Source: a virus. Taken from it: a stretch of 22,773 nt of DNA. Location: the UHGV virus genome UHGV-0256221; one strand, given 5' to 3'. The notes under the pieces were generated by a model, which was not told where the DNA came from, did not search any database, and was given only the letters and a program-made list of their open reading frames with translations. Shown here piece after piece: positions 1-6,748 of the stretch. The position numbers and the translations under genes are program-made. The stretch's first letter is position 1. Every line of letters begins with the position of its first letter.

Positions 1-204
1 AATTGATACCACGCCAGCCTCCGCAAACCTCCGACAAAAACACCTCAAGATCCCCATCAAATCAGCCTTTCCAAAAATTATACTGTTTGCATGTACAGTC
101 AACCTACGACATCATAAGTCATGGTTTTTGTGTCCACCAGCGCGTCCATATCCTATGATGGACACATAACCTCCCGTTCTGATGGACACACGCAGGGACA
201 AATC

Positions 205-1434
205 ATGGCTATTTCAGATAGTTATCTAAAGTCGTGCCTTGGGCGCGAACGAGACAAAGTTGAAGAAAAGGCAGACCGTGATGGTCTGTGGGTACGCATC
301 TCTAAAAAGGGGGCCGTTACTTTTTTCTACCGATTCCGCTTCCTGGGCAAACAGGACAAGATGACGATCGGCAGCTATCCGGAGTTCGGATTAAAAGCCG
401 CGCGCGATGAAGTCGCTAAGTGGGCCGCCATACTTGCCCGTGGCGAAAACCCACGGATCCGGCAAAGCCTCGACAAAGCCAAGATTAATAGGCAGTACAC
501 CTTCGAAGAGCTGTTTCGAGAATGGCATTCGATGGTGTGTGTTCAGAAAGAAACGGCAGGGCAGATTTTACGTACATTCGAATTGCACGTTTTCCCCAAG
601 CTTGGTAAATACCCTGCGCATCAGCTCACGCTGCATAACTGGCTCACTGTCCTTGACCGATTGGCCCAGGGGTACAGCGAGATCACCCGGCGCGTAATAA
701 GCAACGGCAAGCAGTGCTACTCTTGGGCAGTAAAACGCCAATTACTTGAGGTGAATCCTCTGTCTGAAATGTCAGGCCGTGACTTCGGTATTCAGAAACA
801 AATGGGGGAGCGAACTCTTGACCGTAATGAATTAGCTATGGTCTGGCGTGCTATCGACGATTCTCGCCTTATTGAGCGAAACAAGATCCTCTATAAATTA
901 TGCCTGATATGGGCGTGCAGGGTTGGAGAACTGCGGCAGGCAGAAACCGCGCATTTCGATTTCGAAGAAGGGATCTGGACCGTGCCATGGGAAAACCATA
1001 AGACGGGGCGGAAGAGTAAGAAACCGATAATCCGTCCAATTATTCCTGAAATGCTTCCGCTGATACAACGAGCCATTGAGCTGGCGCCGGGCCGCTTTGT
1101 TTTCTCAAAATATGAAGACAAGCCGATGAGCGAGGGCTTCCACATGAGCATCAGCAGTAACCTGGTCAAGTTCATGCTGAAGGCGTACAACGAGCAGGTG
1201 CCGCACTTCACTATTCACGATCTGCGCAGGACTGCGCGAACTAATTTTTCTGACCTGACAGAACCACATATAGCAGAGATCATGCTGGGGCATAAGTTGC
1301 CGGGTGTATGGTCTGTCTATGACAAGTATTCGTATGTAGAGGAAATGCGGGAGGCTTACGGTAAGTGGTGGGCCCGACTGATGAGCATCGTCGAGCCCGA
1401 TGTTTTAGAGTTCACGCCGCGTCAGGTCGGGTAA
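205..1434 (+). CDS. int: Tyrosine integrase, P4-like
   Basis: ORF 121..1434; N-terminus resembles P4-type integrase arm-binding domain (GLWVRISKKGAVTFFYRFRF), C-terminal catalytic-type motifs (HDLRRTARTNFSDL ... YSYVEEMREAYGKWW). Start refined to in-frame ATG at 205 (MAISD...). Confidence 0.85.
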   Translation: MAISDSYLKSCLGRERDKVEEKADRDGLWVRISKKGAVTFFYRFRFLGKQDKMTIGSYPEFGLKAARDEVAKWAAILARGENPRIRQSLDKAKINRQYTFEELFREWHSMVCVQKETAGQILRTFELHVFPKLGKYPAHQLTLHNWLTVLDRLAQGYSEITRRVISNGKQCYSWAVKRQLLEVNPLSEMSGRDFGIQKQMGERTLDRNELAMVWRAIDDSRLIERNKILYKLCLIWACRVGELRQAETAHFDFEEGIWTVPWENHKTGRKSKKPIIRPIIPEMLPLIQRAIELAPGRFVFSKYEDKPMSEGFHMSISSNLVKFMLKAYNEQVPHFTIHDLRRTARTNFSDLTEPHIAEIMLGHKLPGVWSVYDKYSYVEEMREAYGKWWARLMSIVEPDVLEFTPRQVG

Positions 1435-1666
1435 GTCTGCCCTTATCATCACGCGTTAGATTCAGATGAGACATTGGCTTACGGGTTGCCCGTGACATTT
1501 CTTTAATCTGCCAGGCCGTTACTTTGGTCTTAAGCCATTTATTGGGGCCGCCCATGTACGCGCAATCAGGTTCAGGAAAGGGATTCTCTTTTGTGTCTCT
1601 CTTCCTGTAACGTTCGAGAGTGCGTGAAGATATGCGCAGCTGATCGCAGACGTCCTTGGTACTCAT
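1412..1666 (-). CDS. AlpA/Xis-family small DNA-binding protein (putative excisionase or regulator)
   Basis: ORF 1412..1696; small basic protein, MSTKDVCDQLRISSRTLERYRK HTH-like N-terminus; adjacent and convergent to integrase, 3' ends overlap. Start taken at internal Met (MSTKD). Confidence 0.55.
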   Translation of the reverse strand: MSTKDVCDQLRISSRTLERYRKRDTKENPFPEPDCAYMGGPNKWLKTKVTAWQIKEMSRATRKPMSHLNLTRDDKGRLTRPDAA

Positions 1667-1736
1667 CAACTCAAATTTATTCGTTGTTTTGCTCATCTTT
1701 GTTCTCCAGTGGCCCCGGCGGGGCCATCGTGAATTT

Positions 1737-1997
1737 TCAGTGCGCCTGCGCCGGCAGGTTTCGAAGTTTACGAACGCTGATCATGGCGGTCGCGACATAG
1801 CTGGAGGCCCTGTTAACCACCTCGACGGTGACCTTTATTCCGTCAACAACGACGGTGTAATTGGTCCGATGCTTCTGTCTGCCATAGTCACCATATTTCG
1901 CGTGGTGCGTCGCTAATGCTGCATCGCACGCCCGACGCGCTAACGGGGATTGCTTACTACCTCGGTTAATTAGTCGCATGATCACCCCACTCAACAA
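1737..1997 (-). CDS. Hypothetical small protein, distal early-left operon
   Basis: 86-aa ORF overlapping the 3' end of the upstream peptidase-like gene; no recognisable motif. Confidence 0.35.
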   Translation of the reverse strand: MLSGVIMRLINRGSKQSPLARRACDAALATHHAKYGDYGRQKHRTNYTVVVDGIKVTVEVVNRASSYVATAMISVRKLRNLPAQAH

Positions 1998-2412
1998 CAG
2001 GAATTGCCAGGTCTATTGACCATGAGATGAGTTCACGTTCTTCGGAATGTTTGCATTCCCCGTAGACGTAGTATCTGGCACCATCGCGACCTTTTGCCGG
2101 GTCGAGAACTTCAACCACAGAACCTTCTTTTACTGCCACCAAAATTTGATGCGTCCCGCCAACGATATTCAGAGACGGAACGGTGAGGAAATAAACAAAG
2201 CCTGGGAGAAGTTCGGCCTTCCGCGGGTGTCCATAGAAATACGGAATGCTGTAATGGTCCATAGCATCATCAAGCCATGCTTCTTTGCTGTGAAATTTGT
2301 CATGCCATTGCGCGACAACATCAGTAACCGGCTGGCTTGATATCATTGCTACGCACGCTGACATGCAGGTATTGTGGGTTGGTTGTTGCTGATGTTTAAT
2401 GCTCATGTTCAT
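1966..2412 (-). CDS. Papain-fold (C39-like) cysteine-peptidase-like protein
   Basis: 148 aa; Gln10 then Cys16 (QPTHNTCMSAC), His88 (GGTHQILVAV), Asp104 (VLDPAKG): order and spacing fit a C39-type Cys-His-Asp triad. Not database-verified. Confidence 0.45.
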   Translation of the reverse strand: MNMSIKHQQQPTHNTCMSACVAMISSQPVTDVVAQWHDKFHSKEAWLDDAMDHYSIPYFYGHPRKAELLPGFVYFLTVPSLNIVGGTHQILVAVKEGSVVEVLDPAKGRDGARYYVYGECKHSEERELISWSIDLAIPVVEWGDHATN

Positions 2413-2440
2413 ACCGGGAGGGCGAACCCTCCCGCCTCCC

Positions 2441-3535
2441 TTAGTTCGCGTATTCCGGTTTCATGTCGTCGAGGGTGATACGGAACTGGTCATACAGTTC
2501 GTCGCCCAGGTGGCGGCGCGCCGCGGTAAGCGCTGATTCGGCCTTCGCAAACAGTTCTGCCGCGTCTGGTTCGCCGGGATTAGGCAGAGAGTTAATCGCC
2601 GCCTCGACTTTGTTGCGGTGATCCACCAGGTAGTAACGCTTAACGGCTTTGTTCTTCAGTTCGGTGAACAGTGCGGTACCCAGCAGCGCTTTCTGAGATT
2701 CGATATCCGCACGGATGGCTTTGGCCTGGTCGACGGAGCTGGCAGCTTCAATGCGATCACGAAGTTCGCCGGCTACATTGTCCGCGTTTGTTACCGATTG
2801 CTGATCGCAGCTGGCTGTAGTCACCGTCTCCCCAGTAATTTCGGTAACGCTCATTCGCTGTGGCGCTGGATTGATTTCCCGCTCTGGCTTGTCCTCAATC
2901 TCATCAGCGCTGTAAACGCCAAGAATTACATCTGGGCAATACAGTCGCGCCCAGCGCTTGACTGCGAGATATGCGAGTTGTTGACGGGGATCACTTGCCC
3001 AAAGTGTTGAGTTACGGACCTGAGCCTGAGATAGCATGAGCACCAACTCGCGTGGTTCATCCTCACCTTTCATAGTTGCCCATACTCGAATCCCAACGCC
3101 TGCTTCATCCTTTAAATCCCAGCCAGGGGCGATGTATTCATTCCCTTTGCCGCTGGTTTTCTTAATGAAGCGTCCAACGATATTTTCCCATTTCCCAAAC
3201 CAGTCATAATGAATACGGTCTTTCGTTGGGGACATGTTGGTAATAACCGCGTTGACCAACTGAGCCTCATACCCTAGGACTCCGCTATTGCCTACAATAT
3301 GAGTCTTCTGCGCGACTGCGAACGGGTCCATTCCCCAGCGGGCTGCCTGCATAACTACGGCCATACATGCGTCAGGCTTCTCGCGGAAATGACTCGGAAC
3401 GAATGCGCCGCTATTTGCCATCACGACTGATAATGTGCGCAGGCGGTCAAATAACTCGCCATTTGTTAAAATGGAGATGTTGTCGATCATTTGCGTCTTG
3501 TTTTCTGTGGTCGAAATTGCTGTAGACATGTTCAT
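2441..3535 (-). CDS. recT: RecT-family single-strand annealing recombinase
   Basis: 364 aa, recognised as RecT-like; immediately downstream of the recE-like gene with a 6-bp gap, as in Rac recE-recT. Confidence 0.8.
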   Translation of the reverse strand: MNMSTAISTTENKTQMIDNISILTNGELFDRLRTLSVVMANSGAFVPSHFREKPDACMAVVMQAARWGMDPFAVAQKTHIVGNSGVLGYEAQLVNAVITNMSPTKDRIHYDWFGKWENIVGRFIKKTSGKGNEYIAPGWDLKDEAGVGIRVWATMKGEDEPRELVLMLSQAQVRNSTLWASDPRQQLAYLAVKRWARLYCPDVILGVYSADEIEDKPEREINPAPQRMSVTEITGETVTTASCDQQSVTNADNVAGELRDRIEAASSVDQAKAIRADIESQKALLGTALFTELKNKAVKRYYLVDHRNKVEAAINSLPNPGEPDAAELFAKAESALTAARRHLGDELYDQFRITLDDMKPEYAN

Positions 3536-3541
3536 TTCCCC

Positions 3542-6500
3542 TTATGCCAAACGCAGCGCTTCAAGGCGGCGCATATCGAAATCATTCAGTTCGTCGGTGT
3601 AGTCGGCGGTGATCGGCGCTGGCCACTCACCCGTATCAAATCCGGTTGCGATGGCTCGCATGGCATTTCGATACTCGAGCATGCCCAGTTCCAGCAGTTC
3701 AGTGGACGCTTCAATAATGGCGATCCAGTGGTAGTTCTCGTCTTTGTTGACGAAAATCCAGAAGAACTGGTCAAGCGCTGCCGTCTCGCAGTACATGGCC
3801 GCGCTTAGGTGATAATCGCGGTCGATGATTTCGCGGTGTAACTTGGCGCGCAGACCTTCCTGTTTGATGTTCCACATGCTGATGGTTTTCAGGTCGGCAC
3901 CGATGCGCACACCGTCCAGGTCGATTTCCAGATCCGGACGTACACGGACTTCCAGCCCGGTTTCGTCGTCGAACCCGAAATAACTCACTTCTACAGCGCG
4001 GTTCGGGTGCGTTAGCAGCTTGCCGGCGGTCGGGTGCTGGAGCAGAGCTTTCTGGATATTCAGCGCGGTACTTAGCTGCTGGCGGGTGACCAGTACTTTT
4101 CCTTCAGGATTCTCGCGCCATGCATCGATAAGTTCGTCGGCAAATACAGCACCCGGGTTTACTGCCTTCACGGCCTGAATCAGATCTGCCTTCGTGCCGG
4201 ATACTTTCAGTGGCTGCGGCTTCTGCGCTTCCTGCGCGACCAGATCAGGATTGATGATTGCCAGTTGCTCAAGCAGCGAGTCGCGGCTACCGCTGGTTTT
4301 TACCGGCGCAGGCTTATTGGATTCTTCCTCTACCAAATCGGCGTTGATGACCGCCAGTTGCTCCAACAGCGCGTCGCGGCTGCCGCTGGTTTTCACTTGA
4401 GCGGGCAGGGTAGCGTTGTACTCTTTGATGCATGCTTTCATGGCAGCAGCAGTGAAGTTTTTTTCGTCGCCAACAATCCGCTTAAACTCAGCAGGCAATT
4501 CGAGATACGCCAGACCGATCGCGTCTTTATCGCCGCCTAAAGGCACTTGAGCGGGCAGGGTAGCGTTGTGCGCTTCCAGTAGCGCTTTGATATCGTCAGC
4601 AGATAGCGGCGCTGGCAGGCTAGTGTTGTACTCTTCCAGTAACGCTTTGATATCTTCGACTGACAGCAGCGCCTGCAGGCTGGCATTGTATTCATCGATA
4701 AACGCGCGGATCGTTGCGGTTGTCGTGAATGCGCCTTCCGGGATTTCTGGCTCAACGCTGAATTCAGCATCCAGTTGCTCAGGTTGCAGCGCCAGTGCAT
4801 GTACCAGGTTCCCCATATCCAGAACCGGAGAGCGTTCCTTCGTGATGGTCTTCTCAACATGGCGCGCATTGAAGTACATCAGGCTCACGCGAGCATCTTT
4901 AACCTGGGTGCTGCTGATACCGTTGGCGGCGTGATATACCTCGTTTGGTAAACCTTCATAACGGCCAGGCTCGAAGAATGCCGGGTACTCGATGGCTGGT
5001 TCTGCCTGCAGGTCTTCCGGCTCGCTGGCTGTTTCCATCGGCACTAATTCCTGTGCTGTGTCGTCTGCCGGAATCGGCGCTTCAGTTGTCAGAGTTTCCT
5101 GCTTGTTGGTGTCATGCTCCTGCGTGTCCAGTTCTTCTTTCAAACCGGATTCCATCGCTGCATATGTTGCATCACCCATCACAGCACCGCAGTCCTGGCA
5201 ATGCCCGCCACCAATAGCGCCGCATCCGGTACACACGGTTTCCGTTACGGTATCTGCCTGCGAATCATCTTCCACAGTACCTTCGCCTGCTGGTAACGCA
5301 GCGCTATTTTCGGCTTGGGGTTGCTCAGTCGTTTCCATCTGGCCATTGTTGGTGGTCTCGCTTTTGTTGCCGTAAAGTTTTGAGTTCGCCATCAAACCCT
5401 CAACCGAAAAGATGCCACCGCCAACGTTGGTGACTTCAGGCTGTTTAGTAGATGTCAGGTCTTCGCGCACCCACTTCGGATCTTCCGGGTCGCTGATTCC
5501 ATCAACAAATTCCCCGCGCTCCGCTGCGAGTGTGTCACTGATTTCCTTATCCCAGCTTTGTGCAGGGTTATGGCGAGCAGCCTTCAATGTTTCATCAGAA
5601 GGTTTTTCGTGGTTGCTTTCTGTCAGGTTAGCGTTGATGTATCCACTGAGACGGCCGGGATACTGGTAATGCTCTGGGTGGCACTCCCTGATCAGCGCGA
5701 AAATGGCTGCGCGGGAGTAATCGAGTATTCCGGCACGTTTGCGAAGAGCTGCTGACCATTCTTTGAAAGGGCTTTCTTTTTTGCTGACGATCTCTTTCGC
5801 CCGACGATAAACACCACCAGGAATGTCGTAGATGTTAAAGTCCATCGGTAGTGTGGCGAGTGCAATTTCAATGTCTAATGAGTCCAGCGTGTGGGTTAAC
5901 TCAGGGTTACGGTCGGTTTTATTGCCGCCGCCTGCGTTTGTGCCTACGTCAGTTCGTGTAACCGACTGTTTATCCAGCGTCGCCTTATTATGTTTTGCGA
6001 ACCACTTCGCCGTTACATCGTCGCGGGAAACGCGATCGCTCTGATGTGTATTGATCCATTCTGCAAAGAAGGTGATCAGGTCATTGAGCATCGGAGCTTT
6101 ACCGTCCACCGGCCAGATTGATTTTGTGGCCGTAAACAGGTCGGCCAGTGTTTCCGGGAACACGTGTTCAATAGGGCGAGTTTTGAAATCACGCGCGGAC
6201 AGCAATACGTTCTGTGCGTATGTTTCATCCATATCCAGCTCTACACGCGTAATCTCCTGCAACTGCTCAGTAGTCAGCGTATCGAAAAGACCGTACAGCC
6301 AGGTGCCGAGTACTTTTTTCTCATATGGAAATTTGCCGTAGGCGAACAGGTCAACAGCTTCCTTCTCTGTTTCTTGCGTAGTGGTTACTGCGTGCGCATC
6401 GGTAGACGCGGTGGCATCGGCGGCAGCCGCTGGTGTGCTTTCATTGTGAAATGCATCATCAGGCTTGCTGCCTGGCTTCAGTTGCCAGGTGCGCATGTCT

Positions 6501-6748
6501 TCCGCCAGCTCATAGCGTTCGCACCAGGTCAAATCAACGGTGCTTTCTTCCGGGAGGTCATTAAATACGGGAAAATCAGTGCGGATCGGCTTCTGATAAT
6601 CTTTACCGCGTCCGGTCTCGATATTCGCATCTTCCAGTTCAACATCGAGCTGGAGATTGGCGCGAGCTTCGGTTTTTGCCGTGAACCAGACGACTGCGTC
6701 TGGCTTGCCGGATTTCTGAGTGGCTTTAACCACGTAGAAGAATTCCAT
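3542..6748 (-). CDS. recE: RecE-like exonuclease VIII (large multidomain, C-terminal nuclease domain)
   Basis: 1068 aa; C-terminal region resembles the RecE PD-(D/E)xK nuclease domain; central acidic linker with tandem repeats and a Cys4 cluster; GAGGA RBS upstream of the ATG at 6748. Confidence 0.7.
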   Translation of the reverse strand: MEFFYVVKATQKSGKPDAVVWFTAKTEARANLQLDVELEDANIETGRGKDYQKPIRTDFPVFNDLPEESTVDLTWCERYELAEDMRTWQLKPGSKPDDAFHNESTPAAAADATASTDAHAVTTTQETEKEAVDLFAYGKFPYEKKVLGTWLYGLFDTLTTEQLQEITRVELDMDETYAQNVLLSARDFKTRPIEHVFPETLADLFTATKSIWPVDGKAPMLNDLITFFAEWINTHQSDRVSRDDVTAKWFAKHNKATLDKQSVTRTDVGTNAGGGNKTDRNPELTHTLDSLDIEIALATLPMDFNIYDIPGGVYRRAKEIVSKKESPFKEWSAALRKRAGILDYSRAAIFALIRECHPEHYQYPGRLSGYINANLTESNHEKPSDETLKAARHNPAQSWDKEISDTLAAERGEFVDGISDPEDPKWVREDLTSTKQPEVTNVGGGIFSVEGLMANSKLYGNKSETTNNGQMETTEQPQAENSAALPAGEGTVEDDSQADTVTETVCTGCGAIGGGHCQDCGAVMGDATYAAMESGLKEELDTQEHDTNKQETLTTEAPIPADDTAQELVPMETASEPEDLQAEPAIEYPAFFEPGRYEGLPNEVYHAANGISSTQVKDARVSLMYFNARHVEKTITKERSPVLDMGNLVHALALQPEQLDAEFSVEPEIPEGAFTTTATIRAFIDEYNASLQALLSVEDIKALLEEYNTSLPAPLSADDIKALLEAHNATLPAQVPLGGDKDAIGLAYLELPAEFKRIVGDEKNFTAAAMKACIKEYNATLPAQVKTSGSRDALLEQLAVINADLVEEESNKPAPVKTSGSRDSLLEQLAIINPDLVAQEAQKPQPLKVSGTKADLIQAVKAVNPGAVFADELIDAWRENPEGKVLVTRQQLSTALNIQKALLQHPTAGKLLTHPNRAVEVSYFGFDDETGLEVRVRPDLEIDLDGVRIGADLKTISMWNIKQEGLRAKLHREIIDRDYHLSAAMYCETAALDQFFWIFVNKDENYHWIAIIEASTELLELGMLEYRNAMRAIATGFDTGEWPAPITADYTDELNDFDMRRLEALRLA
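4240..4720. repeat. Degenerate in-frame tandem repeats (about 60 and 90 bp units) inside recE
   Basis: Near-identical DNA blocks such as gccagttgctc(a/c)a(g/a)cagcg(a/c)gtcgcggct(a/g)ccgctggtttt and cacttgagcgggcagggtagcgttgt occur twice or more; encode repeated LPAQV / SGSRD(A/S)LLEQLA(V/I)IN peptide units. Confidence 0.7.

Follow-up and report, generated by a model that had tools for sequence, protein, structure and literature searches.

The window analysed here is the whole stretch of 22,773 nucleotides from the virus genome UHGV-0256221, and its left end is a lambdoid prophage arm. An integrase gene lies on the plus strand, and a string of genes on the minus strand reads recE-recT-peptidase-DUF4060-xis. 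The features of this arm that enter the argument are as follows.

121..1434, plus strand, integrase
1412..1696, minus strand, excisionase-like gene (phrog_5914)
1737..1979, minus strand, DUF4060 gene, 80 aa from ATG 1979 (PF13269, E 1.5e-38; phrog_1852)
1966..2412, minus strand, ORF of a predicted stand-alone C39-like cysteine peptidase
2415..2434, minus strand, GC-rich hairpin (8-bp stem, UUCG loop) in the gap that separates the recT stop (2441) from the start of the peptidase gene
2441..3535, minus strand, recT
3542..6748, minus strand, RecE-like gene, 1068 aa, with an Exonuc_VIII N-terminus and a PDDEXK C-terminus

Along the minus strand the five genes either overlap or leave gaps of 6 to 40 nt, and no terminator-like site was found on that strand among them. 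The tight spacing and the lack of such a site make a five-gene operon plausible, and we infer that the peptidase is made early after induction or infection. Between the DUF4060 gene and xis, at 1709..1727, there is a terminator-like hairpin (8 bp, 6 GC) followed by a T-run on the plus strand only; on the minus strand it has no U-tract, and on the plus strand it could halt transcription coming from the integrase side. The hairpin at 2415..2434 also lacks a U-tract and is thus not a terminator. GGGAGG occurs there twice, once 5' of the stem and once inside it, and the hairpin may bring a distant Shine-Dalgarno sequence near the ATG or mask one; its region folds at -18.4 kcal/mol over 66 nt, which at a z of only -1.4 relative to shuffled sequences is not unusual. 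In the closest relatives of the locus (L014-L017, from Citrobacter and others, with peptidases 86 to 88% identical), two genes stand between recT and the peptidase gene, one of 114 aa and one for a D12-class DNA methyltransferase. Both genes are absent from the window, where positions 2413..2440 form a 28-nt spacer with the hairpin.

The peptidase ORF translates from ATG 2412 into 148 aa. A second in-frame ATG at 2406 gives a 146-aa product, which is the NCBI start and matches exactly a protein recorded as "hypothetical protein [Escherichia coli]" (HFN8033300.1). The 146-aa form is thus on record, and no record of the 148-aa form was found; an exact-match contig search with the 5' end of the gene gave no match. 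We keep the numbering of the 148-aa ORF, in which four residues are of particular interest.

2383..2385, minus strand, codon of Gln10, predicted oxyanion-hole residue, aligned with ComA Gln11
2365..2367, minus strand, codon of Cys16, predicted nucleophile, within the motif CMSACVAMI
2149..2151, minus strand, codon of His88, predicted general base, after a conserved VPSLN..GG
2098..2103, minus strand, codons of Asp104 and Pro105, Asp104 being the predicted third member of the triad

The preliminary description of this DNA had pointed to these residues as having the order and spacing of the C39 bacteriocin-processing peptidases. Reading the codons directly (Asp104 at 2103..2101, Pro105 at 2100..2098) confirmed that order and spacing: Q-x5-C, 72 residues from Cys to His, and 16 residues from His to Asp, with the Asp in a DP context. 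In the 146-aa numbering the same residues are Q8, C14, H86 and D102.

The bare pattern Q..C..H..DP is not rare by itself, and the conservation of the four positions is more telling. We aligned 138 representatives, each more than 50% different from all the others, with MAFFT. Gln10 and Cys16 are each present in 134 of them, and the few sequences with gaps there are truncated at the N-terminus. His88 and Pro105 are each kept in 137 of the 138 and Asp104 in all. The positions conserved in at least 94% of sequences are Q10, C16, M23, V78, S80, N82, H88, D104, P105 and Y115, and a second alignment (A2) yielded an identical list. All four residues named beforehand thus fall within a set of about 10 of the 148 positions, for which our own arithmetic gives a chance probability of about 1e-5. 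Over the 138 to 143 divergent members considered, Q, C, H and D are kept in 97 to 100%; the assignment had been made to hang on good conservation of the Cys, His and Asp positions in homologues, and that is what we found. The near-invariance of the four residues is the pattern expected of catalytic residues under purifying selection.

The predicted structure points in the same direction. AlphaFold2, run on alignment A1, gave a model with a pLDDT of 85.1 and a pTM of 0.83, in which helix 16-25 begins at Cys16, His88 lies at the head of strand 87-94 and Asp104 comes just after strand 100-103. In the model this placement is the papain-fold arrangement; the geometry of the active site is deduced from secondary structure and alignment. 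When the model was compared with the PDB by Foldseek, chains of the C39-bearing transporter PCAT1 came out on top (probability about 1.0, E about 3e-3, TM about 0.5). Further down the structural ranking stands a long list of papain-fold enzymes, with Josephin/UFSP deubiquitinases, AvrRpt2, AvrPphB, coronavirus PLpro and cathepsins. Structure prediction, which the preliminary description had proposed as a check, therefore bears out the papain fold, with a C39 domain as the best PDB match. The close matches in BFVD are uncharacterised phage proteins, one of which, from a Bacillus phage, is named "Peptidase C39 domain-containing".

Sequence comparison places the relationship to C39 at a considerable distance. 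The window protein had no match in Pfam even at E <= 1, PF03412 and C39_2 included, and none in NCBIfam or PADLOC. Neither the protein alone nor either of two profiles retrieved a peptidase from the PDB sequences, and the only match near the threshold was the His/Asp motif of PfhB2 at E 0.48. Among 143 family members compared with Pfam, 47 matched PF03412 weakly (best E 2.4e-6), 9 matched C58 and 8 matched C39_2; the longer members, scanned singly, all stayed under the 22-bit cut-off of PF03412, and one family member has a precomputed PF03412 match. The Pfam search that had been suggested thus succeeded for a third of the relatives, weakly, and failed for the window protein itself. Profile-profile comparison was more sensitive. 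The N-terminal sequence of ComA, confirmed to be 100% identical to PDB 8hf7, aligned with the family profile by hhalign at E 2.7e-3, and a profile of 88 ComA-like C39 domains did so with a probability of 59% and E 9.5e-5. Both alignments set Q10, C16, H88 and D104 on Q11, C17, H96 and D112 of ComA, which are its oxyanion Gln and catalytic triad, and Asp104-Pro105 on Asp112-Pro113. BLASTP against CvaB, whose sequence was confirmed against plasmids, found only a 9-residue match (CMSACVAMI/CGLACLAMI, E 0.079). As judged from sequence profiles and the predicted model, the homology to C39 is remote, yet it is consistent over three independent kinds of evidence. The reading as a C39-like papain-fold protein, first put forward on residue spacing, is upheld by the register on ComA together with the near-invariant residues, and similarity to papain-fold peptidases, the lack of which would have counted against it, was found.

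With the double-glycine peptidases of MEROPS C39 and Pfam PF03412 (ComA, CvaB, LahT, PCAT1) the family shares a papain-like alpha/beta fold, a nucleophile at the N-terminus of the first helix, and conserved Gln, Cys, His and Asp in that order. It differs from them in several respects. The window protein and the longer members scanned fall below the gathering threshold of PF03412; motifs particular to the phage family are conserved (VPSLN before the His, His37 and Tyr115); and whereas the C39 unit of the PCAT/AMS transporters is the N-terminal domain of an ABC exporter, the phage protein is a stand-alone product of 146 to 148 aa flanked by RecT and DUF4060. The phage family is also encoded in early or DNA-metabolism modules, unlike the transporter domains, and has no evident gene for a Gly-Gly-leader substrate. 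Since it lies below the family threshold and lacks a transporter context, we do not file the phage protein as a strict Pfam or MEROPS C39 member; it most likely works like a C39 peptidase, and we regard the family as an unannotated, phage-restricted, stand-alone branch of the C39 fold. Matches to peptidase C58 (YopT/AvrPphB/PfhB2-type effectors) were not significant, and C58 enzymes are larger and scored below C39 domains in the structural comparison.

Other functions of a papain-like fold have to be weighed against a peptidase. The protein could be a deamidase, a transglutaminase, an acyltransferase or a gamma-glutamyl-type transferase acting on a host or phage protein or on a small molecule; we hold this to be unlikely, as structure and profile comparison both match it best to genuine C39 peptidases and the Q-x5-C-x2-A-C-[VLI]-A-M motif and the H-x15-D-P spacing copy the C39 pattern. 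A partner-binding protein with an inactive C39-like domain, in the manner of the CLD of HlyB, is much less likely again. CLDs of the HlyB type lack the catalytic Cys, whereas Cys, His, Asp and Gln are here among the most conserved positions of the family; because Cys16 is kept in 134 of 138 sequences, the remaining four being N-terminally truncated, the window protein is not a CLD and we rejected this candidate. Least probable of all is an enzyme that attacks the cell wall, either a hydrolase or an endolysin-like amidase from the papain superfamily (NlpC/P60, CHAP or a Pei-type isopeptidase). The gene lies not in a lysis cassette but in an early-left operon or, in other phages, in replication modules; inspection by eye showed neither a signal peptide nor a cell-wall-binding domain, and the Cys is already residue 16 of 148; and C39 domains rank above lysins among the structural matches. 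An endolysin was accordingly rejected on context, N-terminus and structural ranking.

The family to which the window protein belongs is large. Thirty relatives, none of them named or assigned a Pfam domain, turned up in a homology search; they come from Citrobacter, Klebsiella/Raoultella, Enterobacter, Serratia and Yersinia. An exhaustive profile search extended these to 801 clusters (50% identity) at E <= 1e-3, of which 454 remained at E <= 1e-10. The protein is real and conserved, and a chance ORF, which we also considered, was rejected. Nearly all clusters are stand-alone proteins of 130 to 170 aa. Of the longer relatives, one carries a YunG-like and one a Zn-ribbon extra domain, and the others have extra parts without a match; residues 155-219 of the 229-aa relative P0078 form a C-terminal zinc-ribbon region with sub-threshold matches, Lar_restr_allev included (E 0.035), that are too weak to interpret. 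By tblastn the family is present in 198 of 50,697 phage records, labelled "hypothetical" in all of the matches listed, and in only 2 of 72,556 plasmids. Its carriers include Kuttervirus and Agtrevirus (Ackermannviridae), Vequintavirinae, Nonagvirus, Enhodamvirus of Vibrio cholerae and Pseudomonas phages. The family is therefore stand-alone and almost restricted to phages. In PHROGs the window protein is phrog_4049, function unknown, and every library and record checked labels the family "hypothetical protein" or "unknown function"; our literature search returned no account of this phage family or of DUF4060. Several carrier lineages have non-canonical DNA (hypermodified thymidine in Kuttervirus, 7-deazaguanine in Nonagvirus and 2-aminoadenine in phiVC8-like Enhodamvirus), and methyltransferase genes lie beside the peptidase gene in 9 of 65 prophage loci; there may be a link to restriction evasion.

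In lambdoid prophages the gene has two positions, one flanked by the recombination module and xis/int, the other in the nin region, where the replication genes lie upstream of it. Virulent phages have it among small early genes or beside replication genes, for example those for DNA polymerase (Brenneria phage BREN6), a helicase (Vibrio phage H1), or a clamp loader and SbcC (a jumbo Erwinia phage). Early or DNA-metabolism contexts thus recur in unrelated phages. Comparative genomics of the slot, which the preliminary description had recommended, brought out no conserved neighbour: clustering of the neighbours at 65 loci gave more than 25 families, none of them general, and apart from integrases no partner is conserved across identity classes at the 58 to 65 loci compared. 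In other lambdoid prophages the downstream gene encodes DUF4222 or an unrelated small protein, and upstream there are genes for TraR-like zinc-finger proteins, DNA methyltransferases and others. A DNA methyltransferase gene is the immediate neighbour at the 9 loci mentioned above, directly upstream at eight and downstream at one. No ABC transporter was seen at the phage and prophage loci inspected.

These contexts bear directly on the suggestion that the small ORF overlapping the 3' end of the peptidase gene encodes its partner or substrate. The mechanical ORF runs from 1737 to 1997 and would encode 86 aa from a TTG at 1997. It is real and does overlap the peptidase gene, but it is likely shorter than had been described. 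The 80-aa product is an exact match to NCBI HFN8033299.1, "DUF4060 family protein", and the Pfam and PHROG profiles begin at residues 7 to 9 of the 86-aa ORF; on sequence grounds the start is likely ATG 1979, so that the overlap with the stop of the peptidase gene is 14 nt (ATGCGACTAATTAA) and not 32. The two genes are probably translationally coupled through this overlap, and the closest relatives show the same pairing, which is what one would expect if the DUF4060 product were the substrate or partner in a leader-processing maturation pair of C39 type. The pairing does not extend further. DUF4060 lies beside the peptidase gene at 9 of 58 related loci (10 of 65 when the window and later loci are included); at these loci, where the genes are within 5 kb of each other, all peptidases are at least 84% identical, and at three of the nine an ORF intervenes. 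Moreover, the immediate neighbours over the 65 loci are of more than 25 unrelated families, the 80-aa DUF4060 sequence contains no Gly-Gly or Gly-Ala leader motif, and no ABC transporter was found near the two genes. Because the association is confined to the closest subclade, the neighbours are not general and the leader motif is missing, a DUF4060 partnership is unsupported and we consider it very unlikely.

Our results are thus consistent with a model in which the product of the gene between recT and xis in this E. coli prophage is very probably a miniature C39-type cysteine protease, as indicated by sequence comparison and structure prediction. We put the probability at roughly 0.7 that the product is a catalytically competent, cytoplasmic, single-domain papain-fold cysteine peptidase remotely homologous to C39, and by the same comparisons the protein is probably active as a catalyst. 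Cys16, at the N-terminus of helix 1, would pair with His88 as a thiolate/imidazolium couple, Asp104 would orient His88, and Gln10 would supply the oxyanion hole. The bond cut would be a peptide (or isopeptide) bond, most likely one after small residues such as Gly-Gly, as in C39 enzymes; by analogy with these enzymes a Gly-Gly-type specificity is a tentative proposal, a little short of even odds. No secretion signal was seen by eye in the peptidase. Since there is no transporter, no secretion signal and no conserved neighbour, and the family is almost confined to phages, we infer that the substrate is already in the infected cell; it would be a conserved host protein or a component of host defence, and less likely a phage protein.

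What that substrate may be is suggested by two leads. To our knowledge, Cpe1 and StbD-CT are the only free cytosolic C39 enzymes that have been characterised. Free C39 domains act on cytosolic proteins, and these two cleave GyrB/ParE at Gly-Gly (PMC12136450; bioRxiv 10.64898/2026.05.07.723447). In Kuttervirus the homologue of the window peptidase lies exactly between genes for gp39-like and gp52-like subunits of topoisomerase II, at 3980..4429 of L004 in Salmonella phage Maynard and at 4067..4444 of L002 in Escherichia phage 4HA11. In both phages its stop overlaps the start of the gp52-like gene. In Maynard the stop of the gp39-like gene precedes the homologue by 1 nt; in 4HA11 it overlaps the tblastn match, with the annotated CDS of the homologue beginning 65 nt downstream, and the match in phage Ag3 has coordinates identical to those in 4HA11. 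The gp39-like subunit of Maynard reads YAGSN in the segment that we take to be the equivalent of HAGGK in GyrB, a correspondence drawn from the known GyrB sequence rather than from a computed alignment. By analogy with Cpe1 and StbD-CT, the family could therefore be a host-takeover protease that clips GyrB/ParE at the Gly-Gly of the ATP lid, with Kuttervirus co-expressing a replacement topoisomerase II that lacks the Gly-Gly site.

We judge this reading improbable. In the stretches read of the lambdoid and other smaller carrier phages there is no topoisomerase gene, and lambda depends on the gyrase of its host. In structure the family resembles the toxins no more than it does the transporter domains. 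Junctions of T4-type topoisomerase genes are known landing sites of mobile genes, and a lid of the AGSN type is, as far as is known, general to T4-type and eukaryote-type topoisomerase II. Given carriers without a topoisomerase, no special likeness to the toxins, landing-site junctions and a lid sequence that is general, the topoisomerase context is only a lead. The comparison with Cpe1 and StbD-CT is also limited in other ways. These T6SS and CDI toxins are fused to delivery domains and accompanied by an immunity gene, whereas the phage protein has no N-terminal extension and no conserved downstream gene, and the extra parts of its longer relatives are unrelated or unrecognisable domains, unlike the T6SS and CDI fusions; and cleavage of the HAGGK ATP lid of GyrB/ParE, which the toxins carry out, is suggested for the phage family by circumstantial gene context. 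Alternatively, the protein may serve counter-defence as a Gly-Gly-specific protease by which a component of host immunity, for example ubiquitin-like conjugates, is removed or destroyed. Such a role agrees with the slots for accessory genes in which the gene sits, with its frequent methyltransferase neighbours and with its patchy occurrence over phage families, while the near-absence of the family from plasmids speaks mildly against it. As the target of the proposed peptidase, host defence or counter-defence is a possibility that we hold at better odds than host GyrB/ParE, itself unlikely, and the remainder, the largest share, goes to other or unknown targets.

If the prediction of a C39-like peptidase holds, it would give a biochemical identity to a conserved enzyme family of many unrelated phages, which has about 800 clusters (50% identity) and is found in lambdoid prophages, Kuttervirus, Vequintavirinae, Nonagvirus, and Vibrio and Pseudomonas phages. 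Tailed phages, for which very few small early proteases have been described, would gain another, and the C39 fold, so far linked to peptide export and to toxins used between bacteria, would reach into virus-host conflict. Substrate discovery and tests of GyrB/ParE or of defence components would be straightforward, since the protein is small, looks soluble and has an obvious catalytic Cys.

Two further observations concern the ends of this gene string. The integrase gene and the excisionase-like gene converge, with 23 nt shared between their 3' ends, an arrangement that differs from the co-directional int-xis of lambda. The gene for the RecE-like protein contains a 60-nt tandem repeat at 4554..4690 (2.3 copies, 79% matches), and its translation has more peptide modules that are similar (..DIKALLEEYN..LPA..), so that its central region looks like a repetitive linker.
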